Below are positions 3,515 through 63,795 of a stretch of 64,000 nucleotides of DNA, piece after piece (position 1 is the first letter of the stretch; each line of letters opens with the position of its first letter). The notes under the pieces were generated by a model. It did not search any database and had not been told where the DNA came from. It saw nothing but the letters and a program-made list of their open reading frames with translations. Both the position numbers and the translations under genes were made by a program. Origin of the DNA: Longimicrobiales bacterium (GTDB taxonomy: Bacteria; Gemmatimonadota; Gemmatimonadetes; Longimicrobiales; Gaopeijiaceae); assembly GCA_965198065.1 (NCBI GenBank), contig CBDAON010000004.1, positions 448,001 to 512,000 of the forward strand. Reading direction: 5' to 3'.

Positions 3515-4312
3515 ATGGGGATGGATTCTGTAACGAACAAGGCCACTCCGCCGCGGAAAACCAAGCCCAAGGGCCGCCATCCTGACAAGGCCCTGTCGGC
3601 CGCTTTCGTGCGCACCGCCCCGCCTGGAAGACACGCGGACGGCAACGGGTTGTACCTCTACGTGCAGCCGACGGGAACGCGGAGCTGGATTCAGCGGCTC
3701 GTGATCCGGGGCCGCAAGCGCGAGCTCGGGCTCGGCAGCGTCGCTCTGGTCTCGCTGGCCGAGGCCCGCGAGCAGGCGCTGGCCAACCGCAAGCTCGCCC
3801 GCACGGGCGGCGACCCGCTGGCTGAGAAGCGGCGCTCTGTTGGCATACCCACGTTCGCCGAAGCCGCTCGACGTGTGGTCGAGCAGAAGAGGGCCGGGTG
3901 GCGAAGTCGGGCGCAGGGCCGCGACTGGATCTTGACCTTCGAGCGGTACGCCTTCCCGCGCATCGGGAAGATGCCGGTCTCGGAGGTCACTAGCGCCGAC
4001 GTGCTGGAGATCCTCGCTCCCATCTGGCACACGAAGGCGGACACCGCCCGGCGGTTGCGGCAGCGCATCCGCGCGGTGTTGGAGTGGGCGGTGGCGATGG
4101 AGTTCCGGATCGACAACCCGTGCGACCGGATCGGCCCGGTCCTGGGTCCCCAGCGTGACGTCGTGCAGCACATGCGGGCGCTGCCGCATCGAGAGGTGGC
4201 CGCGGCCATCCAGACCGCGCGGGCATCAACGGTGCCGCTGGCCGTCCGGCTGGCGTTCGAGTTCCTGGTGCTGACGGCGGCACGATGGGGTGAGGTGCGG
4301 TGGGCCGAGTGG
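3515..4312 (+). pseudogene. P4-like tyrosine integrase, N-terminal part (interrupted; continues at 63796)
   Basis: Arm-binding domain (DGNGLYL, LGLGS..VSLAEAR) and LTAARWGEVR present; HxxR and catalytic Tyr missing; paralog of 57298-58512. Confidence 0.88.
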
Positions 4313-4404
4313 GCAGAAGCCGACAGGTTCACATCTGCTTGGGGTAATTGAACTTACGGACGTACCCAACCGGGTTCCCGCCGTTTGATTCCCGCTGATT
4401 GGTC

Positions 4405-5568
4405 TCAGGCGCGAACTCTGCGACGGCTCTCCAGAGCCTTCCTGAGCTGTGCCTCATCGGCCCGCTGGTAGCAGTGCAGCACCGTCTTGGCCTCCTTCCA
4501 ACCGCCGAGTTCGCAGAGCACCTTGAGCGGCTGGTCCATGAGGTCGGAGGCGAACTTCCGCCTTAGGGAGTGCCAGCCGCGGCCACGCTTGGATTCCAGC
4601 CCTGCGAGCGCTACGGCCTTCTCCCACCAGCGCTGCATCCACGAACAGCTCACGCACCTCGAGCGATCCCAAGGCGAGGGCAGCACGGGTGCGTCCCCGA
4701 TACCGGGATTCCTCTTTCGCGCCTCCTCCAGGGCAGCGAGCGCCTCGGCGGTCACCGGCGTCCGGTGCTCGTAGCCCGACTTGTCGTGCTCTGCGTGCCA
4801 CCGCACCACTCCGCATTCAAGGTCGACATCCGACCATCGAAGCTGACGGATGGCGCCGATGCGGTGTCCTGTCTCGTGTGCGAGGACCAGAGCAACGTGA
4901 AAGCGCCAGTCCATCTCCAGAGACACGTGGAGCAGGACCCGGTATTCTTCCTCGGTAAGCATCACCCGTGTCGGGTTCTTCTCCGTGGGCGTCTTCAGGC
5001 CCTTGAGCGGGTTCGAGCCGAGGAGCAGTTCGCCCCGCTCGTCCCTCGACTTCACGGCCCAGTTGAGGACCGCGAGCAGGAACTTCAAGTCCCGTTCGAT
5101 CATCCGGTCGGACACGGGTTTGCCGCTCGGGCCAACCCTGCCCGCGCGGCGCTCCCGGATGAACCGGTCCCAGTCGCGCTGGGAGAGCGTTGCGGGCTTC
5201 CGGTCCCTGCCGAAGCAACCGAGGAACATCCTCATCGCGGCCCTGTCGTGCAGCCGCGACTGCCCACGCTTGGTGGGCGTCACCTCTTCACCGTAGATGT
5301 CAAAAAGCGTCTCCAGGGTGAGCGGCTCGGACTCGGCTTCCGCCTTGCCCTCGATCTCCGGCCCGGCGAAGCCAGCGGCGAACTCGTCCGCCTGCCGCTT
5401 CGCCCGTCTCCAGTCGCGGTGCTTGAGCGACCTTGTGAGCCTGCGCCCGTTCTCGCGCCACTCGATCTGGAACAGGCCGGTCTTGGGATCGGGAAAGACC
5501 CGGACCCGGTTCCGGCCCCATTCGCCGGCGCCGTAGCTGCGCCGGATAGGTTTCGTGCGTGCCATCAT
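4405..5568 (-). CDS. int: Tyrosine recombinase/integrase of the ICE
   Basis: ETGHRIG..LRW, HSLRR, LGGW and terminal Tyr (HCYQ) catalytic motifs; intact 387 aa. Confidence 0.9.
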   Translation of the reverse strand: MMARTKPIRRSYGAGEWGRNRVRVFPDPKTGLFQIEWRENGRRLTRSLKHRDWRRAKRQADEFAAGFAGPEIEGKAEAESEPLTLETLFDIYGEEVTPTKRGQSRLHDRAAMRMFLGCFGRDRKPATLSQRDWDRFIRERRAGRVGPSGKPVSDRMIERDLKFLLAVLNWAVKSRDERGELLLGSNPLKGLKTPTEKNPTRVMLTEEEYRVLLHVSLEMDWRFHVALVLAHETGHRIGAIRQLRWSDVDLECGVVRWHAEHDKSGYEHRTPVTAEALAALEEARKRNPGIGDAPVLPSPWDRSRCVSCSWMQRWWEKAVALAGLESKRGRGWHSLRRKFASDLMDQPLKVLCELGGWKEAKTVLHCYQRADEAQLRKALESRRRVRA

Positions 5569-5948
5569 TCGATTCCTTTTTCGATGATGGACTGCACGAT
5601 CTGCGCATTGGAAACTTGGCGCGGACGAAGCTCGTTGACCACTCGCGGCTCGGCTGGTGCCTTCCGTGGCAGGTGTCTGCGGGCGATCCTGGGCGCGCCG
5701 GGTCTTCCGGCGTTGGGGATCTTGCCGTCCCGCACAAGACGGCCGAGATGGTCAGCGGAGTAGCCGCTCTCCCTGGCTGCCTCCGTCAGCGAGAGGGTGG
5801 TCTCGTCCCTCTCCCGGAGCGTGGCCTCGAGCTCGGCCGCGCAGCTTTCGAGCGCGACGGCTGGCGTCTCGCCCCCGTACCGGCGGAGCGCCTTGGCCTG
5901 CGTCCGCCAGGTGGCTGGCAGGGTCTCGACGGATGCACGGCCGGTCAT
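5565..5948 (-). CDS. Excisionase-like HTH protein
   Basis: LSLTEAARESGYSADHLGRLVRDGKIP is an Xis/HTH_17-like motif; overlaps the int start. Confidence 0.65.
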   Translation of the reverse strand: MTGRASVETLPATWRTQAKALRRYGGETPAVALESCAAELEATLRERDETTLSLTEAARESGYSADHLGRLVRDGKIPNAGRPGAPRIARRHLPRKAPAEPRVVNELRPRQVSNAQIVQSIIEKGIE

Positions 5949-6298: not shown

Positions 6299-7186
6299 TC
6301 AGAGTTCAAGCGCGGCCGGATCCCGGTCGGTCGGCCCTCGCAGGGAGGAGCGATCTCCGCCGTCGCCCACGCCGAGTGAGCGGAGCAGACGCGCGGCCGC
6401 CGGTCCGTTGGCGTGCATCCGGAACCCGGCGGCGGCCTTGGCGCGGACGGACCGTTCGCGGTAGTTGCCCGAGGCGACCTCGATGTTGACGCGTCCGGTG
6501 CGCCCCTCGGAGTCGGTGTACTCGATCTGCGCATCCGGGTAGAGCACGCGTCCCCGCGCATCGATCGGCAAGCCGAGCTCCTCGGCCACGCGGTGCCGCT
6601 CGGCGTCTGCGGCCCGCCGGCCGTCTTTCGCCCGCGCGGACTCACTGCGGCGCGCGACGGTGCTCCTGAGTTCGGTGTCGAGCCGGATGCGCCGCACGGT
6701 GGCACCCCAGTCGAGGAGGCGTTGCTGCTCCTTTCGGCAGGCGCGATAGACGGCGATGTCGTGCGCGGCCTCGGAGGGGCGGATGCGCGCGAACCGGATC
6801 TCCTGGCCGGGATCCATTCCCCGTTCGCCGGCCCGCAGCCGAGCCTCGGCCACGCCTTTCCGCGTGAGGGTCAGGACCTTGAACGGGTTGCCCTTGGGTC
6901 CGGTGGCCTGGGTCTCCTGGGCGAGCCCGTCGCGGACCCAAGCGTTCACGGCCCGCCGGGTGGTGTAGGGATGCCCGCCGAAGTGGGCCTCGGCGAGATC
7001 GCGGTACGATACGGCTCCGTAGACGCCGATGTCGGCAAGCGCACGGCCGCACCGTTCGGGGAAGGAGATGGACCCGCGGTCCCGGCTCGCGGCGTGTTCT
7101 CGGCGATGGCCGTTCCGCATGCGTTGGTTCGCGCGGCTGGGTGGCGCGGCGGGACGCGGGTCCGGTTCGATCGTGCGATCGAACAT
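6299..7186 (-). CDS. Winged-helix plus PD-(D/E)XK-like protein; candidate Replic_Relax/MOBC-like relaxase
   Basis: RBS GAGGAG/AGGAG before ATG 7186; wHTH-like N-terminus (LTLTRKG); AHDIAVY; YPDAQIEY...NIEVASGNY. Confidence 0.55.
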   Translation of the reverse strand: MFDRTIEPDPRPAAPPSRANQRMRNGHRREHAASRDRGSISFPERCGRALADIGVYGAVSYRDLAEAHFGGHPYTTRRAVNAWVRDGLAQETQATGPKGNPFKVLTLTRKGVAEARLRAGERGMDPGQEIRFARIRPSEAAHDIAVYRACRKEQQRLLDWGATVRRIRLDTELRSTVARRSESARAKDGRRAADAERHRVAEELGLPIDARGRVLYPDAQIEYTDSEGRTGRVNIEVASGNYRERSVRAKAAAGFRMHANGPAAARLLRSLGVGDGGDRSSLRGPTDRDPAALEL

Positions 7187-7208: not shown

Positions 7209-8237
7209 TCAGCGGCGAGGAGCGAAGCTCCGCTCCGGGATCGGGAGCGACGGCACGGGGTGGACGGCCCGGCCTGGCGCGGGTGCGCGGGTCGCGGCCA
7301 CGGGCGTGGGCTCCCGCTCGGCCTGGCGCTCACGGCTCCGCGTCAGCACGAAGTCGGAGATCTTCTGCGCGTCAGCCGCGGCGCGGCGGATCTCCCGGGG
7401 ATCCTCCTCGAGGGCGGCGACCCACCCCTCGACATAGGCGGCCCCGCGGCTCGGGTCGTGGCCGACGCCCACGCGCTCGCCCGTCATCATCGCGCTGATT
7501 TCCGCGCGGAGCTCCTCCTTCGCATAGGCCGGCGACCCGAACCCTTCGCCGATCCCTTGGGTGAGCGTTGGGCGGTTCATCCGTTCTGGATGGCCGGTGC
7601 TGTGCCCCAGCTCGTGCAGCGCCGTCTGGTAGTAGTGGTTCGCGGAGGGGAACTGTCCGCGCTCGGGGAGCACGATCTCGTCGCGGTTCAGGTTGTAGAA
7701 CGCCCGGTCCCCCGCCACGTGACGGACGGGGACCCCGCCGTCCTCGAGGACGCGTTCGGCCTGCTGGTGCACCTTCCAGAGCGGCTCGGCCGTGGGTGTG
7801 GGCCGGGCCGGGAGGCCGTCGGCCTGCTCGGCGTTGAAGACGGTGTACTGCCGGACGACGGGCGTGGGCATCCGCTCGTAGCGGTAGACGCGCTTGCCCT
7901 CGGCGTCCCTCCTGGGCCGTCCGCGCTCGTCGGTGACGGCGATCTTCCGGTGGTCCTGGAAGGAGAGGATGCGGGTGCCCTGCTCGCCCTTCCGGACCTG
8001 TCCGCCCCGGGCCTGGATCTGGCGGTAGGTTCCCCAGCGCACGTCGCCGTAGCCGCGCTCCTGCTGGACGGCGGCAAGGTGCAGGCTGTTCCCTCCGGCG
8101 TAGGAGCGTCCGGTATCGACGTTCGCGGGGAGCACGCGCTCGCCCGGCCCCCAGGGCTTCTGCCAGGGGGCCGTGCCCTGGCGGATCTGCTCGATGACCC
8201 GGTCGGCGAACTGGCGGTGATATTCGTCGTGTTTCAT
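7209..8237 (-). CDS. ardC: ArdC-family antirestriction / ssDNA-binding protein with zincin domain
   Basis: PWQKPW, YxGxN, WGTYRQ..GGQVRKGE, YTVFNAEQ, LHELGHSTGH, YAKEELRAE. Confidence 0.9.
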   Translation of the reverse strand: MKHDEYHRQFADRVIEQIRQGTAPWQKPWGPGERVLPANVDTGRSYAGGNSLHLAAVQQERGYGDVRWGTYRQIQARGGQVRKGEQGTRILSFQDHRKIAVTDERGRPRRDAEGKRVYRYERMPTPVVRQYTVFNAEQADGLPARPTPTAEPLWKVHQQAERVLEDGGVPVRHVAGDRAFYNLNRDEIVLPERGQFPSANHYYQTALHELGHSTGHPERMNRPTLTQGIGEGFGSPAYAKEELRAEISAMMTGERVGVGHDPSRGAAYVEGWVAALEEDPREIRRAAADAQKISDFVLTRSRERQAEREPTPVAATRAPAPGRAVHPVPSLPIPERSFAPRR

Positions 8238-8434
8238 AGCTCTTCCTCCTCGGGGCCGTGCGGATCCTCTCCGGCGTCGCGGATCTCGTCCTCGCTGCCC
8301 ACGTCCTCGGAGAAGAGGCCGTACTCTTCGGCCAGCGAGGCCGGCACCTCGAGGGCCTCGCCTCCGTCGCGCGCGAGTTCGCGGTCGAAGTCATCGAGCG
8401 TCTCGACGCGAACGATGTTCTCGTCGCCTTTCAT
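8234..8434 (-). CDS. Small highly acidic protein (66 aa)
   Basis: 24 D/E versus 5 K/R; GAGGAGG RBS; 4-nt overlaps with virB11 and ardC. Confidence 0.75.
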   Translation of the reverse strand: MKGDENIVRVETLDDFDRELARDGGEALEVPASLAEEYGLFSEDVGSEDEIRDAGEDPHGPEEEEL

Positions 8435-9438
8435 GGGTTCACCTCCTCGGTGTGTGGGTGCTGTTCTTGCGGGGCTTCGTCGGCCCCGCTCCAGATCGGT
8501 TCGGCGATCCAGCGGCCCTTGGCCGCGTCGTAGCCGCGCACTTCGAGTGCCTCCTCGACGAACCGCCTGCCCCGTTGCCGGGCCGTGTGTAGCACAAGTG
8601 CGATCCCGTCGACGACGCCCCGGCAGGTGACCTCCCAGGGGAGCGCCCCTCCGGCTTGCATGGCACAGCTCGCGAGGCGCGAGAGCGCGGAGCGTGCGTT
8701 GTTGGCGTGGACGGTGGTGAGCGAGCCGCCGTGGCCGGTGTTGAGCGCCTGGAGCAGATCGGCGGCCTCGCCGCCTCGCACCTCGCCGACGACGATGTGA
8801 TCGGGCCGGTGGCGCAGCGCGTGCCGGACCAGGTCGCGGATCGATACGGGCGCGTCGGAGCCCGCCGCTCCGGCCTCGAAGCGCAGGCAGTTGGTCCGGT
8901 CGATCCTGAGCTCGAGCGTGTCCTCGATGGCGACGATCCGCTCCTCTTCTGGGAGCAGCTCGATCAGCGCGTTCAGCAGCGTGGTCTTGCCCGAGCCGGT
9001 GCCTCCGGAGACCAGGATGTTCCTGCGGGCCAAGAGGGCCGACCGGGCGGCCCCGAGGACCGTCTCCGGCAGCGAGCCCATGCGCACCAGGTCCTGAGCC
9101 GAGAACGCGCGGCCCCCGAACCGGCGTATCGTCATAGCCACGTGGGGGCTCGCGGGCGGCGTGCAGATGGCGACCCTCGAGCCGTCCTCGAGCCGCGCAT
9201 CGAGGACGGGCCGTGTGGCCGGATCGAGCCCGAGCGGCCGCGCGATGTGGATCGCCGCCCGATGGAGCGCGGCGGCGGTAAGCGCCGGCGCCTCGATGGG
9301 CTCGAGCTCGCCGCCGCGTTCGACCCAGACGTTGCCGGGGCCGTTGATCATCAGCTCGGAGACCTCCGGATCCTCGAGCACGGCCTCAAGTCCCGGCAGA
9401 AACGGCTTCAGATGCCCGATCCCGCTCGCGCGCTTCAC
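8431..9438 (-). CDS. virB11: VirB11/TrbB secretion ATPase
   Basis: [45 protein letters not shown] start overlaps the virD4 stop. Confidence 0.9.
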
Positions 9439-11471
9439 AGCCGGCCCTCCTCGCGAAGGCGCCAGTGGCCCGTGCCCCTCGGCAGGTAATGGGGCTTCAG
9501 ATAGACGCGCCGGGCCGGCAGGGACTTCGTGCCGTCGTAGGGCAGGCAGATCGCCTGATAGTTGGCGAGGAGGCTGAAGTCCCGGGGCGTGAAGACCGGC
9601 TCCCTCTGCTGACGGAACGACTTGCTCGCGCCGATCGTGCCGCGTCCGCCGCCTGCGCGCCCGGAGAGCAGCGAGAACTCGGGGCGTCCCGTGGTCTCGG
9701 TGAACGTGTAGGAGGGCTGCGTCTTCAGGACGCTCCCGCACATCTCGGACGCGATCCGCGCCGAGGACTCGTCGGAGAGCGAGAGGAAGATCCGGGTGCG
9801 GAGCGTCTGGACGAGCGTGCGCCAGGCCTCGCCCCCGGGCAGCACGGAGCGGAGCGAGGAGATCGACTGCGTGGCGACGATCGGGATGCAGCGGCACTGC
9901 CGGGTCAGCGCGAACGCCTTCTCGTCGCCCGACGGATCGTCCTGCCCGACGGTGGCGAACGCCTGGTACTCGTCGCAGATGAAGACGGCGGGCCGGAGGT
10001 AGCGGCCGGGCCGGCGGGCGGCCTCGGCGGGCCGCCGCAGGAGCGCCTGCATCCAGGCGTTCTTGAGGAGCACGCCGATGGCGCGGGCGAGCGCGGGGTT
10101 CGCGCCCGCGGGCATGTTCAGCGCGAGGACCCTTCCCTCGTCGATCAGCTCGGCTAGCGGCGGCAGCCTCCGCCGAAGGCCCGGCACGGGCCGGACGGAC
10201 TCGGCGTCCTCGTCCGGCGCGGCACCATACATATGTATGGATTCGTCCGGGTCCGGAGGCGGCGGGCAGAACACGCCGGCGACCTGCGGCTGGTCGAACA
10301 GCGACAGGAAGACACTGATCCCCTCGACGATCGAGGTGCGAAGCTTGGCATCGAGCGCCATCCAGTCATGCAGATACCACCGCTCGATGGCCTCGACCTG
10401 CGCGCCGAACTCGCTCCCCGCGCCGCCCCCGATCTCCTCCGTCTCGTACGCGACGCCGAGTTCGGCGAGTCGCGCTCTGAGTTCCGGGTCGAGCCGGCAG
10501 CTCACGTTCTCGGTGTCGGGCACCCGTTCCCAGGCCCAGTTCTTCAGTGTTTCCGGATGGCCGATCATATCGTCGTGGGAGATGACGGCGCGTACCGGAG
10601 AGAGCCGGGCCGCGAGCTCCCGGGCCTCGCGGATCTTCTCCGCGAAGAGCTCCGCGTCGACCGTGCAGCGGTAGATGTCCTGGAGCGTGACCCAGCCCCC
10701 CGGCAAGAGCCGGTACAGTTCGATGATCCAGCGCACGAGATTTGTATAGGCTTGCTGCCAGAACGGTTCTCGGCTCTTGCCGAAGAGCTGGTTGATGAGG
10801 GAGGCGACGCTGTAGGCGAGCGAGTAGGTGTCGAGCAGCGGATCGTCGAGCGGGTTCCACTGCAACGAGCCGTCGAGCCCGATCTCCAGGTAGTCGCCGC
10901 CGCGCCCGGCCTTCTCGAGGATCCCCCGCACTGCGTGGCAGAAGTCGCCCTTGACCTCGAGCACCAGGGCACTGGCCCGGCGCCCGGCCCGGTCGGCCTG
11001 CCAGGAGAGGAGCTGCTGGGCGAACGGATACATGCAGGCGGTGGTCTTGCCGGAGCCGACGGCGCCGACGATGAGGACGCCGGTGTAGAGCCCCGTCTCG
11101 GGGATGACGAGCCAGGAGGGCCGCTCGCTCTCGCGCGGGACGACGGGATGGTGGAGCTCGCCGATCACCAGCGATGGTGTCTCGTCCTCGGGCGAGGCTG
11201 GCCAGGGTGGCAACGTGCCCCGGCGCCCTCCTCCCGCTCGTGGCTGGAGCCATACTCGCCACACGGAGAGGCAGAGGCTCCCGGCGAGCACGACGGCGAT
11301 GGCGGGCGCCACGTAGTACCAGACGCGGATCGTGGAGTGGAGGCCCGGATCGTGGTAGGCGATCAGGTCTAGCACCGGGTCGCCGCCAGTGCCGGGGAAC
11401 GGTGCCCTGAGGGCGTGTCCGGCGGAGGCGCCCAGCGCAGTGCCGATGACGGCGAGCGTTGCTGGCCTCAT
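9435..11471 (-). CDS. virD4: Type IV coupling protein (VirD4/TraD-like)
   Basis: N-terminal TM segments, GAVGSGKT, LEVKGD, WNPL, ICDEYQ, VATQS. Confidence 0.85.
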   Translation of the reverse strand: MRPATLAVIGTALGASAGHALRAPFPGTGGDPVLDLIAYHDPGLHSTIRVWYYVAPAIAVVLAGSLCLSVWRVWLQPRAGGGRRGTLPPWPASPEDETPSLVIGELHHPVVPRESERPSWLVIPETGLYTGVLIVGAVGSGKTTACMYPFAQQLLSWQADRAGRRASALVLEVKGDFCHAVRGILEKAGRGGDYLEIGLDGSLQWNPLDDPLLDTYSLAYSVASLINQLFGKSREPFWQQAYTNLVRWIIELYRLLPGGWVTLQDIYRCTVDAELFAEKIREARELAARLSPVRAVISHDDMIGHPETLKNWAWERVPDTENVSCRLDPELRARLAELGVAYETEEIGGGAGSEFGAQVEAIERWYLHDWMALDAKLRTSIVEGISVFLSLFDQPQVAGVFCPPPPDPDESIHMYGAAPDEDAESVRPVPGLRRRLPPLAELIDEGRVLALNMPAGANPALARAIGVLLKNAWMQALLRRPAEAARRPGRYLRPAVFICDEYQAFATVGQDDPSGDEKAFALTRQCRCIPIVATQSISSLRSVLPGGEAWRTLVQTLRTRIFLSLSDESSARIASEMCGSVLKTQPSYTFTETTGRPEFSLLSGRAGGGRGTIGASKSFRQQREPVFTPRDFSLLANYQAICLPYDGTKSLPARRVYLKPHYLPRGTGHWRLREEGRL

Positions 11472-11505
11472 CGGTCTAACACCCTTCCTGGAAGGATCGC
11501 TGGAC

Positions 11506-11596
11506 GGGAGCGACCCCGCCGGGGAGGGTGGCATGGGCGTGCACATGCCACCTTCCCCGATGCCGTACTAGGCATCCCGAAGGGGGGGTCGCTCCC
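11506..11596. other. Conserved three-way stem-loop element (candidate oriT or structured RNA)
   Basis: Outer stem GGGAGCGACCCC/GGGGTCGCTCCC enclosing two hairpins; homolog at 37035-37120. Confidence 0.6.
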
Positions 11597-11771
11597 TCCA
11601 CGGCCGCACCCTCCGGAACGGCATCGCCGGTCCTGCGGCCGTGGTGCAACCGCAACGCCGCCAGCGATATGCGGAATCGGCGGCGCGCACATGGAAGCGG
11701 CGTTTTCGTGCACAAGCACCCCGATGTCGATGTGCACGCGCGGCACGCCACCGACGCCCGCCGTCCGGCGG

Positions 11772-12707
11772 TCAAGATCCGCCCCCTGGAAGCCGGCTCG
11801 AACGCCATGTCGTGAACCCGTCGATCGCCGTTCCGGGCCGCGCGGACCGGAGCAGGTCCTTCAGCTCGACGATCCGCTTGAGGCAGGCCTGCAGGTCGCC
11901 ATACTCTTTGAGCACCCGGTCATCCTTCTTGCGGATGGCCTGCTCGATTCGGACGATCTCGCGGCGGGCCGCACTGTCGGGTTCCGGAGCGGCGGAGGGG
12001 CCGGATGCTGTAGATGTGTTGGTCCAGCCCTCGAGGATCGTCAGGGCCCGCTGCAGCTCCCTCACGGTGCGGACGACGGCCACGACCTCGATGGATCGGC
12101 CGCGCTCCCGCAGCGCTTCCCAGAGGCCGCGATGTGCCACGGCCCACGAGCGTAGCGCCGTCGTGGTATCGTGTCCGGGATCGACGTAGACGAACACGGC
12201 GCGCTCGGCTTCGAGCGCGACCGGCAGCTTGAGCGGGAAATAGCGCCGGGTGTTCCCGGCGGCTCCGCGGTAGAGCCGCGAGGGCAGGAGCCGGCGCTCG
12301 ATGCCGAGCGCCTCGAACGCGCCGACCTTCTCCATCTCGGTGGGCAGCCACGACAAGCCGGTGTGCTCGAGCACGTAGTCGAGCGAGAGCAGGCGGCGCA
12401 TGAGCACCTCCTCGGAGGCAGACCTGCGGTGGCGGATGTGCTCGGCGCCGAGCGCGCGGTAGGTCCGCCGGGCGAAGATCCGGCAGACCCTCAGGCCCCC
12501 AAGGATCTCCTCGTCCGCCAGCCGTTGGTCCGACATGGCGCGGACGAACCGGAGCGCCTTCCAGCGGTCGAGGCCGAGATGGGCCGAGAGCTGGGTGCGG
12601 GTGAACACGCCGCTGTGCAGGCAGACGAGCGCGATCCACTCGGCCTGGCGTCCCGTCCAGCCGAGCGGCTCGAGCGCCGCCTCGCGCCCCCGAAGATGGG
12701 CGATCAC
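11772..12707 (-). CDS. Conserved T4SS-associated protein of unknown function (wHTH-like N-terminus)
   Basis: Clean 311-aa ORF coupled to virB8; homolog fragments at about 36565-36830 and 47548-47760. Confidence 0.75.
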   Translation of the reverse strand: MIAHLRGREAALEPLGWTGRQAEWIALVCLHSGVFTRTQLSAHLGLDRWKALRFVRAMSDQRLADEEILGGLRVCRIFARRTYRALGAEHIRHRRSASEEVLMRRLLSLDYVLEHTGLSWLPTEMEKVGAFEALGIERRLLPSRLYRGAAGNTRRYFPLKLPVALEAERAVFVYVDPGHDTTTALRSWAVAHRGLWEALRERGRSIEVVAVVRTVRELQRALTILEGWTNTSTASGPSAAPEPDSAARREIVRIEQAIRKKDDRVLKEYGDLQACLKRIVELKDLLRSARPGTAIDGFTTWRSSRLPGGGS

Positions 12708-13372: not shown

Positions 13373-13383
13373 GGATGTCTCCT

Positions 13384-14394: not shown

Positions 14395-14413
14395 GACGGT
14401 CGCTCCCCGGGGC

Positions 14414-17456: not shown

Positions 17457-17462
17457 GGCGTA

Positions 17463-30492: not shown

Positions 30493-30496
30493 CTAT

Positions 30497-45461: not shown

Positions 45462-45504
45462 AGTGTTCCGAGCGTCGGCGGGCGAGTTTGGCCGCTACGG
45501 CGGG

Positions 45505-45590: not shown

Positions 45591-45600
45591 GCAACGGCAC

Positions 45601-47431: not shown

Positions 47432-47547
47432 TGGTTCTAGGCAGCCAATCGGCGCTCGAACAGGTCCGTTCGCTCGACAACCTCGTCCACGGGCGTCTTC
47501 GATCGCCCCATGGATTCCCGTTCAGAAAGAGGGATGGATTGAGGGGA

Positions 47548-47760: not shown

Positions 47761-48013
47761 CGCTGCCGCTTTCTCCCTGTGACCCTGCCTGGTTGGCAGG
47801 ACATCGTGCCGCAAGGACTTCAGCGCGAAGACGGGGAGAGAAGCAGAGAGATGAAGGGTGGAACGATGAGAGGATATGAAGTTGAACGGAACGCGTCGTC
47901 GCTGGCGAGAGTGGGGAAGTCGGGTTGAGACGGTCAAGTCTGATCCCAAGGCGGTCGGGCGGACGACTTGGCCATGGTGGCTCAGTTAGGAAGCAGCGCT
48001 GTCCAGGCCGATG

Positions 48014-54236: not shown

Positions 54237-55364
54237 GCTCCACGACTTAACTGACCTCCTCCTTGACCAAACCCGGAAGCGTGGCCACGAAAACCGAAAG
54301 CATGCGAGAAATAGTTGGAGGTCTGGACGGCCGCAACTGGCGAATGCCGTTCCAGATCGATACGACTGACCCGCCCGACGCCCGCCAGCTTGGGAGCGGG
54401 AGCGCCGATCCCCTGGAGAAGAGTCTGTTCAGCTTGGCTACATGCTCCTCATAGCGCGCTACGGATCGGCGGCGGACGTCGAACACCTCGAAGAAACCGT
54501 TGTAGAAACTCTGAGTCTCGCCCTTCTCGTATGCTGGCAGAGGTGCGGGGTGTATCCCGCATGGTCACCGGACCCGGTGGGGTCCGGCCTGGAGCACGGC
54601 AGCGAATCGGCCGAAGTGAGGCTGGCCTCGTGGGCCCGGAAGATCACGGCTCTCCGGGGCTCTCAGCGGCCCGGCTTCAGCTACGAAGCCGAGCCGGGTC
54701 GCGGGGTCACATGAGCTCTCAAAGAGGCCCGCCTAGACGCGTCGGTAGGTAGTTGGCGACACGAGCCGGATCACAGCCAAGGGAGGACTCGCCGATAGGA
54801 AGACGCAGGCCGAAGCCACGCGCCAGGAAACCGGCGGTTGAACAAGGGCGACGACCCTGTCCGTGCCGATGTCTTGGCGGCCGCTGTACCTCCACATGTG
54901 TTAATCGCGGATGACGACGGGTCGCCTGTTCCAGGGAAGTCTCTTCGCCGAGGACTTTCTTCGCGACGCGATCACAGAACTTGACGAGTGGCAAGACCTC
55001 CCCGACGCAGCGCTCGGGGATCTCGAGGGTGCTTCCATGAGGCGCCTGCACGACTCACCCAAGCCCCACTCCACCCCATAGCTTCAACCGTCAACCCACA
55101 ACTCCAGCGCCGCTATGGACCTCTGCTCCCACAGGGTGATCGACACCGGTGGAATACGGAGTGGCGGCCCAAGACCGCGAGAAACCGATACCGAACATCG
55201 ACGCGGTGGTGCTGTCCGGTGGTAGCGCGTATGGCTTAAGCGTCGACGGACGTGGTGATGCAGTATCCCGCGAGTCTGGTTTCCGGAATGCGCTACCTAC
55301 GCAACACTATGCAATTTGAGTACATTGTAATGTTCGGTATGTCTTCGGTTGCCGGAGGTGATCC

Positions 55365-56138
55365 GTGGCCCAGCAGACGGGAATCGAGTGGACAGACGCG
55401 ACATGGAACCCCGTCACTGGGTGCACTCGTGTAACAGAAGGGTGTGACAATTGCTACGCTGCCACCCTCGCCGCCCGACTACTTCGACAGGCTTACTTGG
55501 AGCGGGCCCCTGTGATCGACTCGGATATCACCCGGCGAGATCCATTCGCCGTTCGGCTGTGGCCTGAACGGTTATCCCAGCCTCTGAAGTGGCAGGATCC
55601 ACGGGTGATCTTCGTCAACAGCATGAGTGATGTGTTCCATGCCGACATCCCCACTGACTTCCTGCGCCAGACATTCGAGGTCATGCTCGAAGCCAATTGG
55701 CATACCTATCAGGTGCTAACAAAGCGTCCATCACGAGCCGCTCGATTCTGGCGCGAGAATTCAGACCTGTTCGGAGGTGACCCGATTCCCAGCCATATCT
55801 GGATCGGGACATCCGTAGAGCATCAAGATGTGGCCTACCGAGTTGGTCACCTCCGACAAGTACCTGCATGGGTCCGCTTCCTCTCCTGTGAGCCCTTGAT
55901 CGGACCGATTGAGCTGGATCTAAACGATATCGGATGGGTCATCGCTGGCGGGGAGAGTGGACCGGTCCGCCGACCCATGGAGCCTGCCTGGGCCCTGTCG
56001 ATCCGTGACCAGTGTCGCACTGCAGGTGTTCCATTTTTCTTCAAGCAGTGGGGTGGCCGCACGCCCAAGGCCGGCGGCAGGGAGTTGGACGGGAAGCATT
56101 GGGACGAGATGCCAGTGGTAGCGACTGCTGGCAAGTGA
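55365..56138 (+). CDS. DUF5131 / phage Gp37-Gp68 family (three-Cys, radical-SAM-like)
   Basis: IEWTDATWNPVTGC..V..GCDNCYA, FVNSMSD.FH, LTKRP, FLSCEPL, GGESG, FFKQWGG. Confidence 0.92.
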   Translation: MAQQTGIEWTDATWNPVTGCTRVTEGCDNCYAATLAARLLRQAYLERAPVIDSDITRRDPFAVRLWPERLSQPLKWQDPRVIFVNSMSDVFHADIPTDFLRQTFEVMLEANWHTYQVLTKRPSRAARFWRENSDLFGGDPIPSHIWIGTSVEHQDVAYRVGHLRQVPAWVRFLSCEPLIGPIELDLNDIGWVIAGGESGPVRRPMEPAWALSIRDQCRTAGVPFFFKQWGGRTPKAGGRELDGKHWDEMPVVATAGK

Positions 56139-56146
56139 GATGACGG

Positions 56147-57007
56147 TTGTCTGATTACAACTTTCTCGCAGGACTCACAGACGACGGGCTCTACACTCCC
56201 ACGATCAAGTGTCATTCGTTGCACAAGATCCAACTCCACAACTACTACGTGGAGTTGTTCAGTACCTCGATGAAGAGACAATGGCCCCAGCGGGCCTACC
56301 TCGGTCTCTGCTCTGGAGCGGGCCGGGCGAGAGTCGAGGAGACCGACGAAATAGTCGAGACGACGGCGATGTCCGCGGTTCGGGTTCAACATCCTTTCAC
56401 GAAGTACGTCTTCGTGGATAACGACCTCCGGTGCATTGAAGCCCTGAAGGGGCGGATTGCTGCATTGCCGGGCGAGCACGACTTCACGCTTCTCCTCGAA
56501 GACGTCAATTTAGCCGGAGAGAAGATCGTTGAGGCTATGCCAAGCTACAGTTCTGACCACAAGCTACTGTCCTTTTGCTTCATCGACCCTTTTTCTGCCG
56601 ACCTCAATTTCGACGTGATTAAGACCCTCGGGACCCGCTATCAGATGGACTTTCTTATCGTCCTGATGCTGGGTAGAGATGTCCGAACCAACTTCCGTCG
56701 ATACCTATCAGACCCGAGCGACACCAGAATCGCCTCTCTGATCGATGATCCAGATTGGCGGGAAGGGTGGGCTGGCAAGGGCCATGGGAGTCGGGGCTTA
56801 ATACGGTTTATTCTGGAAAAGTTCGACGAGGCGATGACTGGAATCGGTTATCGGGCTGCTCAACCAGATGACGCGCACCCGATCAGAGTTTTTGGAAAGA
56901 ACGTCTTCCTCTATTCATTGGTCTTCTATAGCAAGAATCCGCTCGGCCAGAAGTTCTGGCAGGCCACTCGTCGCGGGACCCATCCACAGATGACCCTCGG
57001 CATCTAA
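56147..57007 (+). CDS. tcmP: Three-Cys-motif partner protein (TcmP-like methyltransferase fold)
   Basis: HS..K..L..Y, YLGLCSGAG, FCFIDPF, YSLVFYSK; directly after DUF5131. Confidence 0.8.
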   Translation: MSDYNFLAGLTDDGLYTPTIKCHSLHKIQLHNYYVELFSTSMKRQWPQRAYLGLCSGAGRARVEETDEIVETTAMSAVRVQHPFTKYVFVDNDLRCIEALKGRIAALPGEHDFTLLLEDVNLAGEKIVEAMPSYSSDHKLLSFCFIDPFSADLNFDVIKTLGTRYQMDFLIVLMLGRDVRTNFRRYLSDPSDTRIASLIDDPDWREGWAGKGHGSRGLIRFILEKFDEAMTGIGYRAAQPDDAHPIRVFGKNVFLYSLVFYSKNPLGQKFWQATRRGTHPQMTLGI

Positions 57008-57174
57008 AGAGAGTGGCCCAGAATCATCCCAGACGGTCCCGGCTCCACCGCGTTGCTCCCTAACTGGTGGTCGACGACCTGATGCGAGCTTTCCGGTACG
57101 GCGGATCCCGTTCCCTGGCGTCTCTTCGAGCCGCAGGAGTCGCTCGTGCTTCGTTGTCAGGCGTGCGCCGTCCA

Positions 57175-57297
57175 GATGAGGTCACGCGCGCCGACGTGAT
57201 CGAGATCCTCACTCCGATCTGGCACACCAAGGCGCCCACGGCCCAGTGTGTACATCACCGCACCCGAACTGTGTTAGAATGGGCCGTGGCGATGGAG
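57175..57297 (+). pseudogene. P4-type integrase internal fragment
   Basis: EVTRADVIEILTPIWHTK...VLEWAVAME. Confidence 0.75.
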
Positions 57298-58512
57298 CTA
57301 CGTGCCCTTCGGTTCTTGACGCTCGCCAGCCAGGTAGCTCGCCCAGTCCTCCATGAGTCGGCGCCGCCGCTCGAACAGGTCCGTGCGCCGATAGGCGGCC
57401 TCGACCTTGTTCTGGACGACATGCGCCAGCGCCGCCTCCACGACCTCGCGGGGATGATCCGTATCTTCGGCCGCCCAGTCCCGGAAACTCGACCGGAACC
57501 CGTGCGGCACAGCCGCGATCTTTAACTCCCTGAGCAGTTCCGACAGCGCTGTGGTCGCAATGGGGTTTCTGCGCAGGCCTGGAAACACGAGCGGGCTGCC
57601 GCGATCGAGCGCCCGCGCCTCCTCGAGGATCTCCAGCGCACGCCGGCACAGCGGGACCCGGTGCTCGCGCGCCGCCTTCGTGCGTCGGGCCGGGATGATC
57701 CACGCACCCTCGCCCCGGTCGATCTCCGTCCAGAGCGCCCCACGCACCTCGCCGGAGCGTGTCGCCGTCAGCACCAGGAACTCGAATGCCAGCTTCACGA
57801 CCGGCCGCGCGTTCGACCTCCGCACCGTCTCGATCGCCGCCGACACCTGGCCGTGCGGCAACGCCCGCATGTGTCGAACGACGCCCCCCTGCGAACCGAG
57901 CACCGGGCCGATCCGGTCGCACGGGTTGTCGGGCCGGAGACCCATCGCCACCGCCCACTCCATGACCGCGCGGATGCGCTGGCGCAACTTCCGGGCCGTG
58001 GGCGGCATGTCGTGCCAGATCGGAGCGAGGATCCCGATCACGTCGGCGCTCGTCACCTCCGAAATTGGCATCTTCCCGATGCGAGGAACAGCGTAGCGCT
58101 CCAGGCTGCTCAGCCAGAGCTGCGCATGCTGGGGGGAGCGCCAGCCCGGCCGCAGCTGGTTCCAGACCTGCCGGGTCGCGTCCGCGAAGGTGGGCGTCGA
58201 CTCGACCCGCCGCTTCTCCGACAGGGGATCGCCTCGCTCGCGGGCGAGCTTCCGGTTGGCGAACGCCTTCTCTCGGGCTTCCTTCAGCGAGACCAGGGGG
58301 AATCCGCCGAGCCCGAGCTCGGTTCGGCGGCCGCGGATCGTGAGGCGCTGGATCCAGCCCCGGCTGCCCGAGGGCCGCACATCGAGATAGAGGCCCTGGC
58401 CGTCACAATAGCGTCCGGCCTGGCTCACGTTGCGCACGAAGGCAGGCGTCAGGGCGTTGTTGGGATGCCGTCTGCGCGGCTTGCGTTGCGGGGGTCGCTT
58501 GGGGGGTGTCAT
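57298..58512 (-). CDS. P4-like tyrosine integrase, intact
   Basis: Arm domain, TATRSGE, PHGFRSSFRDW, LAH, AAY.R. Confidence 0.93.
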   Translation of the reverse strand: MTPPKRPPQRKPRRRHPNNALTPAFVRNVSQAGRYCDGQGLYLDVRPSGSRGWIQRLTIRGRRTELGLGGFPLVSLKEAREKAFANRKLARERGDPLSEKRRVESTPTFADATRQVWNQLRPGWRSPQHAQLWLSSLERYAVPRIGKMPISEVTSADVIGILAPIWHDMPPTARKLRQRIRAVMEWAVAMGLRPDNPCDRIGPVLGSQGGVVRHMRALPHGQVSAAIETVRRSNARPVVKLAFEFLVLTATRSGEVRGALWTEIDRGEGAWIIPARRTKAAREHRVPLCRRALEILEEARALDRGSPLVFPGLRRNPIATTALSELLRELKIAAVPHGFRSSFRDWAAEDTDHPREVVEAALAHVVQNKVEAAYRRTDLFERRRRLMEDWASYLAGERQEPKGT

Positions 58513-58698
58513 ACCTACCAATATATCCACCACAGATTAGCGGATGCAAGGGTATGGAGCGGATCGGTATGGGACAGGAGAGATCCTTATGCATCGTGAT
58601 AAGTCAATATAAACAAGTCAGTTATATGCGTTATGGGACTTGGCTGGACGAGATGGCTATTCCCAATATGGCTGCCCTCCGGGAAGGGTGCCAGCGCG

Positions 58699-59418
58699 AT
58701 GCTGAAACCCGCGACGCTCGTACTCGTGGGCCTCGCTTCGGCGGCCGCCATCGCTCACGCGTTCCGGGCGCCGTTCCCCGGCCCCGGCGGCAACCCGGTG
58801 CTGGACTTGATCGCCTACCACGATCCGGGCTTCCACACGGTGATCCGAGTCTGGTACTACGTGGCGCCCGCCGTCGCCGTGGTGCTCTTCGGCAGCCTCG
58901 GCCTCTCGGTCTGGAGAGTCTGGCTGCAGCCCCGGGCGGGAGGAGGGCGCAGGGGCACGTTGCCACCCTGGCCCGCCTCGCCCGAGGACGAGGCGCCATC
59001 GCTGGTGATCGGCGAGCTCCACCATACCGTCGTCCCGCGAGAGAGAGAGCGGCCGTCCTGGCTCGTCGTTCCCGAGACGGGGCTGTATACGGGCGTGCTC
59101 ATCGTCGGGGCCGTCGGCTCCGGCAAGACATCGGCCTGCATGTATCCGTTCGCGCAGCAGCTCCTCTCCTGGCAGGCCGACCGGCCCGGGCGCCGGGCCA
59201 GCGCCCTGGTGCTAGAGGTCAAGGGCGACTTCTGCCATGACGTGCGCCGGATCCTCGAAGGCGCCGGGCGCGGGGACGACTACCTGGAGATCGGCCTCGG
59301 CGGCGCCTGGCAGTGGAACCCACTCGACGATCCGCTGCTCGACACCTATTCGCTCGCCTACAGCGTCGCCTCCCTGATCAACCAGCTCTTCGGCAAGAGC
59401 CGAGAACCGTTCTGGCAG
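58699..59418 (+). pseudogene. Second VirD4-like gene, N-terminal third
   Basis: Highly similar to 9435-11471 up to EPFWQ, then broken. Confidence 0.88.
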
Positions 59419-59419
59419 C

Positions 59420-59790: not shown

Positions 59791-59912
59791 GTAAGGCACG
59801 GAGCAAGAACCGAGATGGCAATCGGTCGAGACCCCGTGTATTCTGCGAGTAATGCCACAGTCCAGCCCCTGGAATCACATTAGGTGATCGCTATGGCCCC
59901 TTGGGAAATCCG

Positions 59913-60968
59913 ATGAGCCGTTACCGAACGATGATCAAGATGTCCGCACTATTGGTGGGTCTGGTCTTGGCGTCGGGTTGCGGTGGCAGAGACAGCACCA
60001 CGGCGCCGGAGCCAGTGTCCGATCCGCCTCGTCCCACGACGATCGCGGTGAGCCCATTCGCGGCCGAGCTAACTGCGTTGGGTGAGACCGTACAGCTGAC
60101 AGCGGAGGTTCGGGACCAGAACGGTAGGGTGATGACTGGCGTGACCGTGACGTGGACCAGCAGCGACACATCGGTGGCCACCGTCTCCGAGGGCGTTGTG
60201 ACAGCCGTCCGAGGGGGCAACGCCACGATCACGGCAAGCTATGAGGAGCACACGGTCGAATCGATGATCTCTGTGTGGATTTCCACGCTCAGCGAGTGGT
60301 CGGTGCGTGTGCTGTATGTCGTGCCCGCGGACAAGGAGTTCCGCAATGACTACAGCGACGGCCTCTCCAGGGCGATCGTGGATGTCCAGGGGTGGTACCG
60401 CCGGCAGCTCGACGGCCTAACGTTCGACATCTACAGCGTCATACCGGAACAGTGTCACCTCCCCGGAAACGAGGAGTACTACAGCCGCGTCGACCCCTGG
60501 CAAAAGGTCCTGGACGATGTCCAGTCCTGCGCGCCGGTGGTGGCAGGGGTATCTGTGACCGATCTGATTCCGCGCGATGGGCCGCTCCCTGGCAGCTCCC
60601 GGTTTACATGGTTGCTCTATATCGACGTGGTCGAAGTCTGCGACGGACGCGAAGGCCAGGGGTTTGGGGCGGGGTGGGACGGCGTTGCCATGATGGGGAG
60701 CGGGGATCTGGAGGGTTTGTCGAATCCAGGGCCGTACTCCGCTTGTGATGGAGGACCGTGGGAAGGGACTCTTGGCCGCTGGATGGGGGGAACCGCCCAC
60801 GAACTCGGGCACACGTTCTTGGTGCCGCATCCGCCCGGATGTGAGGAAGGATTGCCAACGTGCGACTACCCAGCCCTGATGTGGGATGGGTATGGCAGCT
60901 ACCCGGACACCTATCTACGCGACGACGAGAAGGCGATTCTGCGGCGGTCGCCGTTCATCAAGCGTTGA
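59913..60968 (+). CDS. Lipoprotein with BIG2 domain and metzincin-like metalloprotease
   Basis: ASG-C lipobox, WTSSDTSVATVS, AHELGHTFLVPH, ALMW Met-turn. Confidence 0.82.
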   Translation: MSRYRTMIKMSALLVGLVLASGCGGRDSTTAPEPVSDPPRPTTIAVSPFAAELTALGETVQLTAEVRDQNGRVMTGVTVTWTSSDTSVATVSEGVVTAVRGGNATITASYEEHTVESMISVWISTLSEWSVRVLYVVPADKEFRNDYSDGLSRAIVDVQGWYRRQLDGLTFDIYSVIPEQCHLPGNEEYYSRVDPWQKVLDDVQSCAPVVAGVSVTDLIPRDGPLPGSSRFTWLLYIDVVEVCDGREGQGFGAGWDGVAMMGSGDLEGLSNPGPYSACDGGPWEGTLGRWMGGTAHELGHTFLVPHPPGCEEGLPTCDYPALMWDGYGSYPDTYLRDDEKAILRRSPFIKR

Positions 60969-61146
60969 TCGCCCGGGGGACTGGCGGGTGAGTGACGTCC
61001 TGACGCGGCTGGGGGCAACGTCAGACCAAGACTGTCGAGGTTCGCCGCAAGACCGGTCGCGGGAGCACGACGCCCGCATGGAAGGTTGTCCATGGATGGT
61101 GCGGATCGGAACAGACCGACCCTAGCACAGGAGAAGGGAAGAACAC
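60969..61146 (+). ncRNA. IS110 upstream non-coding region, candidate bridge RNA
   Basis: About 180 nt with four hairpins directly 5' of an IS110 transposase start. Confidence 0.45.
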
Positions 61147-61260
61147 ATGAGCACCATCCTTCGCACCGTCGGGATCGACATCTCCAAGGACTGGCTCGAC
61201 GCCTTCGCCGCGCCCGAGGGGAAAGCAGCCCGGTTCTCGAACGACAGCCACTCTAATTAG
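61147..61260 (+). pseudogene. IS110-family transposase N-terminal fragment
   Basis: MSTILRTVGIDISKDWLDA...FSND. Confidence 0.8.
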
Positions 61261-61280
61261 CTGTGCGGAGAAGAATCCCC

Positions 61281-63198
61281 ATGAGCCGTCGCCGGACCAT
61301 CGTGCGGCTGTCCGCGGTGCTGGCGGTTGCGGCCTTGGCCAAGGGGTGCGGGAACGGTGACAGCCCTAGCGCGCCTCCAACGCCAGAGCCCGCCCGCCCG
61401 ACGACGGTCGCGGTGAGCCCGGCCACCAACGAGCTGACTGCGTTCGGCGCTACGGTTCAGCTGAGCGCAGAGGTGCGTGACCAGAACGCCAGGGTCATGG
61501 GTGAGGCCACCGTGATCTGGACGAGTAGCGCCAACTCGGTGGCGACGGTGGATGCGTCGGGCCTCGTTACAGCTGTGGGCAATGGGACGGCAACGATCAC
61601 GACGGTCCGCCGGGTCGGCGTCAGGCTCTGCGGTGGTGACGGTGACGCAGTGGGTGGCCTCGGTGGAGGTGTCGCCGTCCGTGGACGAGCTGACTGCGTT
61701 GGGCGCGACCGTTCAGCTGGCGGCAGAGGCGTTCGACGCGAACGGGCATGCGGTGGCGGGAACCGAGTTTTCGTGGGAGTCCAGTGACGTTGCGGTGGCG
61801 ACAGTCGACGAATCGGGCCTCGTGACGGGAGTCTCCGAAGGGGTGGCGACGATTACGGCGAGGGCGGGCGATGCGTCAGGCTCCGCCGTGGTGAGTGTAA
61901 TGCAGCCCGTCGCCTCGGTGGAGGTGTCGCCGTCTGTGGAGACGATTGGGTTGGGCAGTACGCTGCAGTTGATGGCGGAGGGATTCGACGAGAACGGGGA
62001 TGCGGTGGCAGGCGTAGCGTTCTCGTGGGAGTCCAGCGACGTCGCGGTGGCGACGGTGAACGCTAGGGGTCTGGTGACGGGGGTCGCCGAAGGAGTGGCC
62101 ACGATTACGGCAAGCGCGGGTGAGGCGTCAGGCTCCGCGGTGGTCACGGTTCTGCCCACATTTACTCTATCTGGCACGGTGAGCGACAGCCGGAGAAACG
62201 GTCCAATGCTTGCCGGCGCGGTCGTGCGGCTCCAAAACGGCAGACAGGAATCCATGACGACCGGCCCCGACGGGCACTACCGTTTCCAGAACGTCTGGGG
62301 GACGGTTACGGTTACGGTGACCGCCGAGCCCAGCTACGTAGCGGAGACCGTCGAGGTTACTGTGGACGCGGACCGCACGGTCGTTTTCACCCTCGAGCAC
62401 ACGGGAATCCCGCCGTTCGCGGGGACTGTGTTCATCACGCCAAACATCCTCGATGCTTCGGACCCCACATCGCTCCGGAGCGTAGCGTATGCCGGACGCG
62501 GGGAGCGGATGATCTATGACAGGCGGCCCGATATGTGGATCACGGTCGACGCTTACCTTTTCGACGCGCAGTACGACGGACAGGTACTGGAGTTCCAGGT
62601 CAACCCGGAATTTGGCAGCGTGGAGGCAGCACAGACGGAAGTTGAGAAGTACGCGCCGGCGATCGGCCGGCTGCCGACCGTTCTTCTGTCGCGAGCCCTC
62701 GAAGTACAGATCAACGCCGGGGATGAGCTCTTCGGAGGCAACTCACGAGACAGAAGCTTCCTAATTCACACGGACCATGGGGAGAAACGCATCCGCGACG
62801 GCTTCCTGGAGGAAGTGCTTCTCCATGAAGCCGGGCATATCTCGCTGGATCCCGTGCATGCAAACGCCGCCAGATGGCGCGCGGCACAGCAGGCCGACGG
62901 CGTCTTCATTTCCGACTATTCCCGTGATTTTCCAGATAGAGAAGACGTCGCCGAGAGCATCTTAACTTACTTCGCTGTGCGGTACCGGCTCGAGCGGCTG
63001 AGCGAGCCCGACCGGGTTGCGATTCTTGCCGCCATACCGAATCGTCTGGTCTATTTCGACGAGCAGGGACTCGACATGTCGCCCTACGTGGCGACGGAAT
63101 CGATTGCCCCAGTCCTCGCAGTGACTCCGTTCCAGCCGCAGCCGCGGATCTGGCGATCTTTCGAAGGCCCCCGCGCGAGGCCAGGCCCCGGACGCTGA
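61281..63198 (+). pseudogene. Lipoprotein with 3x BIG2, carboxypeptidase-regulatory-like and zincin domains; frameshift near 61605
   Basis: AKG-C lipobox, three W.SS..VATV repeats, LSGTVSD, LHEAGH, EDVAES. Confidence 0.8.
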
Positions 63199-63795
63199 GA
63201 AGTACCATGGAGGTGCCGGGATCGGCGTCATCGCAGATTGCTACCCCACTTGGCGGTGAGATCGATTACCATCAGCCCGATTCGCTACTTTGGGACGATT
63301 TCTGGCGTCTCTACTGCCTCCAACGCCTTGCGATTACGGAGACGCAGAAGTTATTCGAGTCGGACTTCATGTCGCTGCCTCTGGACAGCTCCGCAATCTA
63401 CTCATGAACGCCGAGATCGACCCTTGTCAGGTCGCCGAGCCCGAAGTCGACCTCGGCATCGGAGCGTCGCGCCAAGGGCATGCCGCTGTGGGGCGAACCG
63501 GAGAAGCAGGAGGTATGGGCGCGCGCGCTCTGGTGCCACCTCCCTCATGGCTGCATAGCGGTGGGGGAGGTGTCCCGCGATCCCCCCGGTGTGTCGGGGT
63601 TCCAAGATAACGTGGAGACGGGCAGCTGACCCGGGGATACGAACTCGGATTCCCGCCATTTGTGGTGGTTTTCCCGCTATTTCAGTACTGTCAATTCAGA
63701 TATCGTCTAACGGCAAGGTCGGCAGATCGTGCAGTCCCAGTTTAACTTAGACGATTTCTTGCCGTGAATTACAACACCTGAGCCGTGCCGAGTGG

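Follow-up and report, generated by a model that had tools for sequence, protein, structure and literature searches.

The DNA analysed here, referred to as the window, is a 64,000-nt stretch of a Longimicrobiales bacterium genome (assembly GCA_965198065.1, contig CBDAON010000004.1; G000:C4:448001-512000 in our labelling, in which G000 is the host genome). The contig is 2.87 Mb long and contains no N. The host is apparently a sponge-associated member of the Gemmatimonadota, and several of the runs that hold part of the window DNA are labelled as sponge metagenome. An earlier note, made from the sequence alone, had described positions 4304 to 63795 as a single integrative and conjugative element (ICE) inserted inside the integrase gene of another, P4-type element. 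That block is confirmed. The open reading frame (ORF) starting at 3515 breaks off after ...GEVRWAEW, the frame from 63787 reads AEWTEIDRDEGVWTVPAKRM, which is the next segment of intact P4-type paralogs and then diverges, and the same 9-mer stands at both breaks (4304-4312 and 63787-63795), giving the predicted core-to-core distance of 59,483 nt. The TTCCCGC and AACTTA motifs listed by the note are present within both ends, and the element's own integrase gene adjoins the left end (Table 1).

The 9-mer by itself was rejected as proof of the ends, as the window holds seven copies of it and the G000 genome 104. The case therefore rests on the in-frame gene halves and on the membership of both ends in conserved end families. 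When one genome per species was scanned, 442 of 462 stretches with a related integrase were confirmed, and the best 80 loci, at 71-98% identity, were kept; their titles name Gemmatimonadota lineages in 74 cases and Gammaproteobacteria bins in six. The left end (4313-4400) resembles the left ends found in 79 of these 80 loci, and the right end (63640-63786) resembles a family of 47 distinct junctions from G000 and the fetched loci. This argues that the ends are real.

Table 1. Features of the window, with coordinates counted from its first letter.
Feature	Position	Strand	Basis or remark
IS3-family 5' piece, first 459 nt, cut by a P4-type element	2913..3371	+	99.8% to the intact IS3 at 32279
End region of the resident P4-type element	3372..3514	+	same IS3/P4 junction at C4:1364150 and C3:60485
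Target P4-type integrase, 5' half (arm-binding and central domains)	3515..4312	+	PF13356, PF22022; 92-93% to paralogs
attL core, GC-(7 nt)-GC; putative 7-nt overlap 4306-4312	4304..4314	+	aligned in register with the anticodon stem-loop where paralogs sit in tRNA genes
Decayed tRNA 3' half (T-arm relic) in the left end	4315..4346	+	19/32 identities, shuffle test
Left arm: AACTTA box (4351), TTCCCGC doublet (4375, 4389); putative arm-type sites	4347..4395	+	family conservation
Tyrosine integrase of the element, 387 amino acids, lambda-like three-domain fold	4405..5568	-	R/H-x-x-R/W/Y invariant in 30 relatives
Small helix-turn-helix protein, weak excisionase candidate	5565..5948	-	HTH_17 E 0.0028, below cut-off; 86-88% conserved
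Relaxase candidate, distant Replic_Relax (MOB_C-type)	6299..7186	-	atlas 0.90 to PF13814 cluster
ArdC-like anti-restriction protein	7209..8237	-	PF08401, PF18818
Type IV conjugation module	8431..20499	-	all genes full length
Divergent small ORF and S24-family repressor-like gene; backbone end	20759..22072	.	
Variable cargo: MazEF-like pair, IS3 copies and fragments, acyltransferase, unknown ORFs	22076..36500	.	
Inverted relic of a second family member, part 1	36566..37138	+	
Nested 21.5-kb P4-type mobilizable element	37139..58682	.	relic around it has an uninterrupted counterpart near C4:1332130
Inverted relic, part 2: 5' portion of virD4, cut off	58675..59419	+	87% to 10754-11470; 96% to C4:1331391-1332135
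Two Ig-like-domain protein genes (cargo)	59901..63198	+	PF02368
Right arm: TTCCCGC doublet (63650, 63671), conserved GCAGATCGTGCAG block, AACTTA box (63744)	63640..63786	+	right-end family
attR core (63787-63797) and 62-nt target 3' fragment, truncated	63787..63848	+	
IS3 3' piece from IS position 881, 421 nt lost; extends to C4:512264	63871..64000	+	

The interrupted gene is not merely split. Its 3' fragment ends after 62 nt, followed by the IS3 piece, and the H-x-x-R and Tyr region is missing. The resident P4 element had itself split an IS3 copy, and the 3' part of the P4 element is gone together with 421 nt of the IS3. The note had held that the insertion disabled the integrase; the gene is indeed divided by it, although the catalytic 3' end was lost to a separate deletion, so the disabling cannot be put down to the insertion alone. 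Because the target is truncated 62 nt past the right end, excision would not restore it, and the insertion does not behave as a regulated switch that leaves its target whole after excision. The end of the P4 element (3372-3395) reads EWADYLD and is itself similar to the 3' terminus of a P4 integrase gene; one copy of this end lies in the 3' end of another P4 integrase (G000:C4:380558) and three lie at IS3 position 459.

From 4405 to 22072 the element has a conserved backbone of 19 ORFs, all of full length in comparison with two elements of genome G004. It has the parts expected of an ICE: an integrase beside its attachment (att) site, attL and attR with a common core that rejoin one target, and uninterrupted genes for VirB4, the coupling protein and the mating pore. 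The conjugation module consists of virB11, virD4, ORF 11772, virB8, virB6, a trbJ-like gene, virB10, virB9, virB4, virB3 and virB2. The relaxase is a candidate: ORF 6299-7186 has no Pfam match, 4 of its 56 aligned homologs match PF13814 (best E 4e-7), and fold searches matched the winged-helix part only. The Replic_Relax family is listed as MOB_C (PMC5357655). A relaxase at 45932 was considered as the ICE's own and rejected, as it lies inside the nested element. The G004 elements, 36 and 41 kb long, share the backbone at 82-90% to about window position 21,000-22,075, carry unrelated cargo beyond it and run on for at least 18 kb to a right end; homologous ICEs thus do not end near 22 kb, the outcome that the note had named as one that would speak against it. 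ORF 11772-12707, a conserved backbone gene without a family, scores 0.97 to unnamed atlas clusters and 0.87 to the nearest named one (DUF5697); it is preceded by hairpin-rich DNA (11470-11770), a candidate oriT, and fragments of it recur in the nested element (47548-47760).

The ends of the element appear to carry the record of an earlier, different target. Outward from the integrase stop codon, a left end begins with a doublet of GCGGGAA, continues with a CCGTAAGTTCAAT box and a stretch of 32 nt, and closes with a core of 11 nt, GC-(7 nt)-GC. Three paralogs in G000 have the 3' half of tRNA-Ile, tRNA-Ala or tRNA-Pro as these 32 nt, and their core is formed by the last two stem pairs and the anticodon loop, the 7 nt being the loop. 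The distant integrases L005 and L007 face tRNA-Ile with the same geometry. The window element has this geometry, a 7-nt loop centre followed by a tRNA 3' fragment, as a relic: positions 4315-4346 are identical to the best tRNA half of the genome at 19 of 32 sites, which was equalled by 26 of 20000 shuffles. Across 60 distinct non-tRNA relics, the mean is 16.9 identities in 32, compared with 12.5 +/- 0.2 after shuffling. No tRNA gene was found in the 64-kb window, and the element does not enter and restore one, its target being the P4-type integrase gene. The note's remark that the target was not a tRNA therefore holds for the target and overlooks an attachment site that derives from one. The order of parts that it predicted for attP recurs in an attP-like junction of genome G062, where the core connects a right arm with a relic and a left arm. 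We infer that the co-oriented TTCCCGC doublets are arm sites. A separate right-end lineage, without a GC-edged core, is found about 250 nt upstream of P4-type integrase genes (G000:C4 15354, 381914 and 393230; L176 and L201).

The predicted structure of the integrase aligns with lambda integrase over 382 columns, including the arm domain. Homologs were detected in 30 of 61 genomes (E <= 0.001), mostly weakly, with many close copies in G000, G004, G006 and G036. A quick maximum-likelihood tree (41 of 92 rows, with long outgroup branches) placed the tRNA-inserted members near the base and grouped 28 non-tRNA rows with an SH-aLRT support of 90. Alignment A2 omits L087, L151 and L005. The integrase is 97.5% identical across the genomes of three species, which suggests, at the level of sequence, recent movement of the integrase module. 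At L200 (G062:C1:710041-717100), an IS3 5' piece, P4 5' half, left end and backbone are arranged as in window 2912-9971 at about 90% identity; the integrase there is 97.4% identical and its neighbours 84-92%, a pattern compatible with mosaic exchange of the integrase module or with independent insertion. A dense tRNA array of about 17 genes (ARAGORN numbering) lies at G000:C4:1710874-1713016, near a family member at 1727943.

The family as a whole is not confined to one kind of target. Among the 79 left ends, two lie at tRNA genes, ten in sibling integrase genes, three in IstB (one junction), two in P4-type integrases and two in a relaxase. Junctions of the kind that falls in the Tyr codon of a sibling integrase were seen at G004 C15, L112, L114 and L165. 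Sixty gave no match to the mobile-element proteins tested, and several of these lie inside rhodanese, metallo-beta-lactamase, FGGY kinase or DctM genes. Pfam labels of doubtful placement, as at L136, L146, L147, L157 and L158, were disregarded, some because their reading frames may miss the core. The 68 distinct junctions hold 34 different 7-mers, which cluster by lineage and follow the integrase tree, and no pooled flank column exceeds 48% consensus. Repeated insertions by one lineage were seen in the region of the active-site Cys codon of rhodanese-domain genes (L093, L108, L110, L111 and L126).

Eight events carry the core of the window element (overlap CGAGTGG). Five are at one P4 site (the window, G000 135k, G000 2685k, L164 and L084). 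The other three, at different sites, are L083, L085, whose flank is found again in X15, and a loose end in run X18. L083, with an integrase 98% identical in amino acids and the same relic, interrupts an Fpg-like gene, and the intact Fpg-like copy L205 carries the same 11-mer; no right-end partner of L083 was found within 80 kb. The split 5' half at L083 and the intact L205 (G061:C6) lie about 210 kb apart on one contig and are identical where compared. Contigs aligned to the left end showed two non-P4 left flanks. The sister overlap CGAGGCG accounts for 10 of the 47 distinct right ends: five in IS256, one in IstB and four at a second P4 site (two of the four assigned by eye), which adjoins the catalytic Tyr. 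Within G000 the 11-mer has 27 matches. Four of them are the junctions of three events, all in P4 genes; of the rest, one is a P4 site that is still intact and 22 are unoccupied sites outside P4 genes. With all three events in P4 genes and 22 non-P4 sites empty, P4 genes stand out as a hotspot, for which the contributions of selection, preference and copy number are inseparable here. The note's claim that a resident P4-type integrase was targeted thus holds for this insertion and does not extend to a family aimed at integrases, given the Fpg-like gene and at least two other non-P4 sites.

Where the flanks of two ends run on through one gene, the ends share their 7-mer: in the window, at G004 C15 (41 kb, in a sibling integrase gene) and in G062 (11.8 kb, in mobC). 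A pair at G004 C14 has overlaps that differ by one base and flanks that do not run on through one gene. The 59.5-kb interval contains no further family end. The end families support the assignment of attL and attR to one family and the crossover position proposed by the note, with residual doubt as to their cognate pairing. The 150 nt before attL are 98-99% identical to two paralogs. The window 3' piece is 90% identical to the same two, compared with 84% for the fragment at 2685k and no match for that at 135k. The note had named, as one refutation, that this fragment belongs to a different integrase copy; it is the best allele match of the three 3' halves, which speaks for the same copy, at only 90%, which does not.

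We favour the reading, with a probability of about 0.74, that the block is a composite ICE whose lambda-like integrase placed it, likely by a single 7-base strand exchange, in a P4 integrase gene that carried the 11-base core. The family likely began in tRNA genes and now likely uses any site with a short 11-base core. An ancestor would have crossed over in the anticodon loop of tRNA-Ile, tRNA-Ala or tRNA-Pro genes, bringing a replacement tRNA 3' half. In its descendants the arm sites and the GC..GC edges of the core would have persisted, with drift in the 7-nt overlap and decay of the replacement half. Each lineage would now insert where its own overlap is matched, with little demand on the flanks. 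The integrase would bind weak GC-edged core sites and the arm sites on both attP arms and swap strands across the matching 7 nt, an identity of the 7-bp overlap being known for tyrosine integrases (PMC10111431), and new lineages would arise when the overlap changes. Multi-copy, dispensable mobile-element genes are over-represented, likely owing to their copy number and their tolerance of insertion, and perhaps also because their right half-site matches better. The cargo, the inverted sibling relic and the nested mobilizable element would be later gains, and a separate deletion would have taken the remainder of the P4 element. Excision would yield a circle of 59,483 bp, which the type IV system would transfer.

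Several observations weigh against this reading. The root within the integrase family is only weakly placed, the relaxase call is distant, and the enrichment of P4 genes in G000 exceeds the expectation from the 11-mer. The 3' piece is less similar to the paralogs than the 5' side. Two other right ends in G000 lie at the same P4 site without a left partner, and a 61-kb pair at G004 C10 has IstB as its left flank and IS256 as its right flank. The outer IS3 is not flanked by an evident target duplication, and neither an excised circle nor an empty site was seen for the window copy. An attP joint was not found in the contigs aligned to the left end, which are fragmented, come from mixed strains and cannot show absence. 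A search for the empty locus by synteny of the left-flank mscS gene matched 8 of 40 relatives (E <= 1e-30) at no more than 55% identity, none of them a close strain.

A bolder version is tentative at best. It takes the 7-base attP overlap as an exchangeable address, with some lineages, including this one, locked onto conserved motifs of rival elements, in a two-way conflict with P4 elements waged by site-specific insertion, and the decayed tRNA half as the record of each switch. The rival-element motifs that are hit lie in P4 integrases beside the catalytic Arg and Tyr, in sibling integrases, and in IS256, IstB, relaxase and mobC genes. P4-type elements, for their part, interrupt the virB4 of the ICE family at a site matching window 19291-19299 and its virD4 at a site matching 10746-10769 (G000:C4 near 3147, 876791, 1344959-1349253 and 2844908-2859261), so that targeting in G000 runs both ways. 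A dedicated hunter of integrase and transposase genes, recognising extended sites in P4-type integrases, disabling competitors and hitting host genes as rare off-targets, would fit this reciprocity, the five events at one P4 site and the location of all ten distinct CGAGGCG right ends in mobile-element genes. We regard it as unlikely: dedicated targeting would put nearly all insertions of a lineage in integrase genes, yet three of the eight CGAGTGG events are elsewhere, one of them made by the 98%-identical integrase, the low flank consensus leaves only a short core common to the targets, and 60 of the 79 left ends fall outside the tested mobile-element proteins, several of them in host genes.

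Slightly less probable still is that each end stems from an insertion of its own, into one and the same site of two P4 copies later joined through IS3 or ICE recombination, so that the 59.5 kb never was one unit. Family ends are often scrambled, so matching flanks could arise from two insertions joined later; three P4 copies of G000 are hit at this site, two without partners, the interior holds the inverted sibling relic and several IS3 pieces, and the 3' piece reaches only 90% to its best paralog. L084 (G062) also has the same IS3/P4/left-end junction with no cognate right end in the 68 kb read. Against such a joining, the two halves agree in gene, frame and overlap, the window 3' piece is the best allele match of the three, the interval is free of other family ends, and the outer IS3 pieces are co-oriented. 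An assembly chimera of a repeat-rich metagenome-assembled genome (G000 has 49 IS3-type and 17 P4-type matches) is very improbable: the 2.87-Mb contig is free of N, the geometry of the family is reproduced exactly at both junctions, and a second genome shows the left junction too, at about 90%.

Our reading of a single exchange at a tRNA-derived core finds a close parallel in the site-A islands of Islander, in which the crossover of a tyrosine integrase is centred on the anticodon loop and an attP tRNA fragment restores the gene (PMC4383910). The G000 paralogs at tRNA-Ile, tRNA-Ala and tRNA-Pro behave exactly so. In the window element, by contrast, the fragment is decayed and the protein-gene target is not restored, and only 2 of the 79 left ends are at tRNA genes; by analogy, it would work like a site-A tRNA island minus its tRNA. 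ICEBs1, a tRNA-targeting ICE, also enters secondary non-tRNA sites as costly accidents (PMC3715440), whereas in the present family it is the att site that has been altered, and lineages as a rule sit outside tRNA genes. The low-specificity tyrosine integrases of Tn916 and Tn1549 share the use of many sites per family but act at AT-rich sites of loose sequence (PMC8138268). Mismatched overlaps and AT-rich targets of that kind were not found: the three continuous-flank pairs have identical 7-mers and the cores are GC-rich. As these pairs keep an identical 7-mer and each lineage has a 7-mer of its own, promiscuity lies at the level of the family.

Attack on the genes of other elements also has precedents. 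Tyrosine integrases of the HE-PICI clade repeatedly hit prophage late genes, with many site groups in the genes of another element, and share with our family the 7-bp overlap identity and a doubled co-oriented motif around the attP centre, comparable to the TTCCCGC doublets (PMC10111431). Those elements, however, are satellites of phages, and the helper gene is made whole again when they excise (PMC10111431), whereas the window element encodes its own type IV conjugation, host genes are among the family's targets, and its own target is unrestorable. Integrative and mobilizable elements (IMEs) can use the oriT or a gene of an ICE as their integration site, and composites of ICE and IME are known (PMC5704250, PMC5357655). 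The element at 37139-58682 is of this kind, but in the window the ICE forms the outer element and has a P4-type integrase as its victim, and targeting in G000 runs both ways. Nesting in the genes of other elements is thus already known (PMC10111431, PMC5704250, PMC5357655), as are 'site-promiscuous integrase clades' of TIGER, named in PMC9580842. A description of this integrase family was not found in the literature searched, which left most subscription papers outside its coverage.

Taken alone, the insertion in the window is an ordinary site-specific event, and its interest lies with the family. Trees are the usual basis for inferring how an integrase specific for tRNA genes comes to use new sites, and here the att sites themselves hold the record. 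A fading tRNA half beside at least 34 overlaps, among integrases 72-98% identical, makes site switching directly testable. If the demand on the flanks is truly low, such an integrase could be aimed through seven attP bases, which would be of interest for genome engineering. The integrase of phage mv4 has reportedly been the subject of a reprogramming study. The family also goes some way towards explaining why these Gemmatimonadota genomes, which are likely sponge-associated, are so heavily nested and scrambled.

The 59.5 kb are a composite, about 40% of which is the nested element and the inverted relic of a second ICE. The nested element lies within this relic, which has an uninterrupted counterpart near C4:1332130; it is flanked by an 8-bp repeat (at 37131 and 58675) and encodes a type I restriction-modification system, HigBA, mobC with a MOB_P relaxase (45601-47431), a DruE-like helicase and an integrase (57298-58533). 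This is the integrase that the note had taken as the intact paralog of the target; it belongs to the nested P4-type element. A 125-nt inverted piece of a P4 integrase (57178-57302) overlaps its 3' end. The genes at 48014-57007 are probable defence cargo: they include the DruE-like helicase, an upstream partner of 675 amino acids and a DUF5131/TcmP pair that matches the PADLOC candidates PDC-M41A/B.

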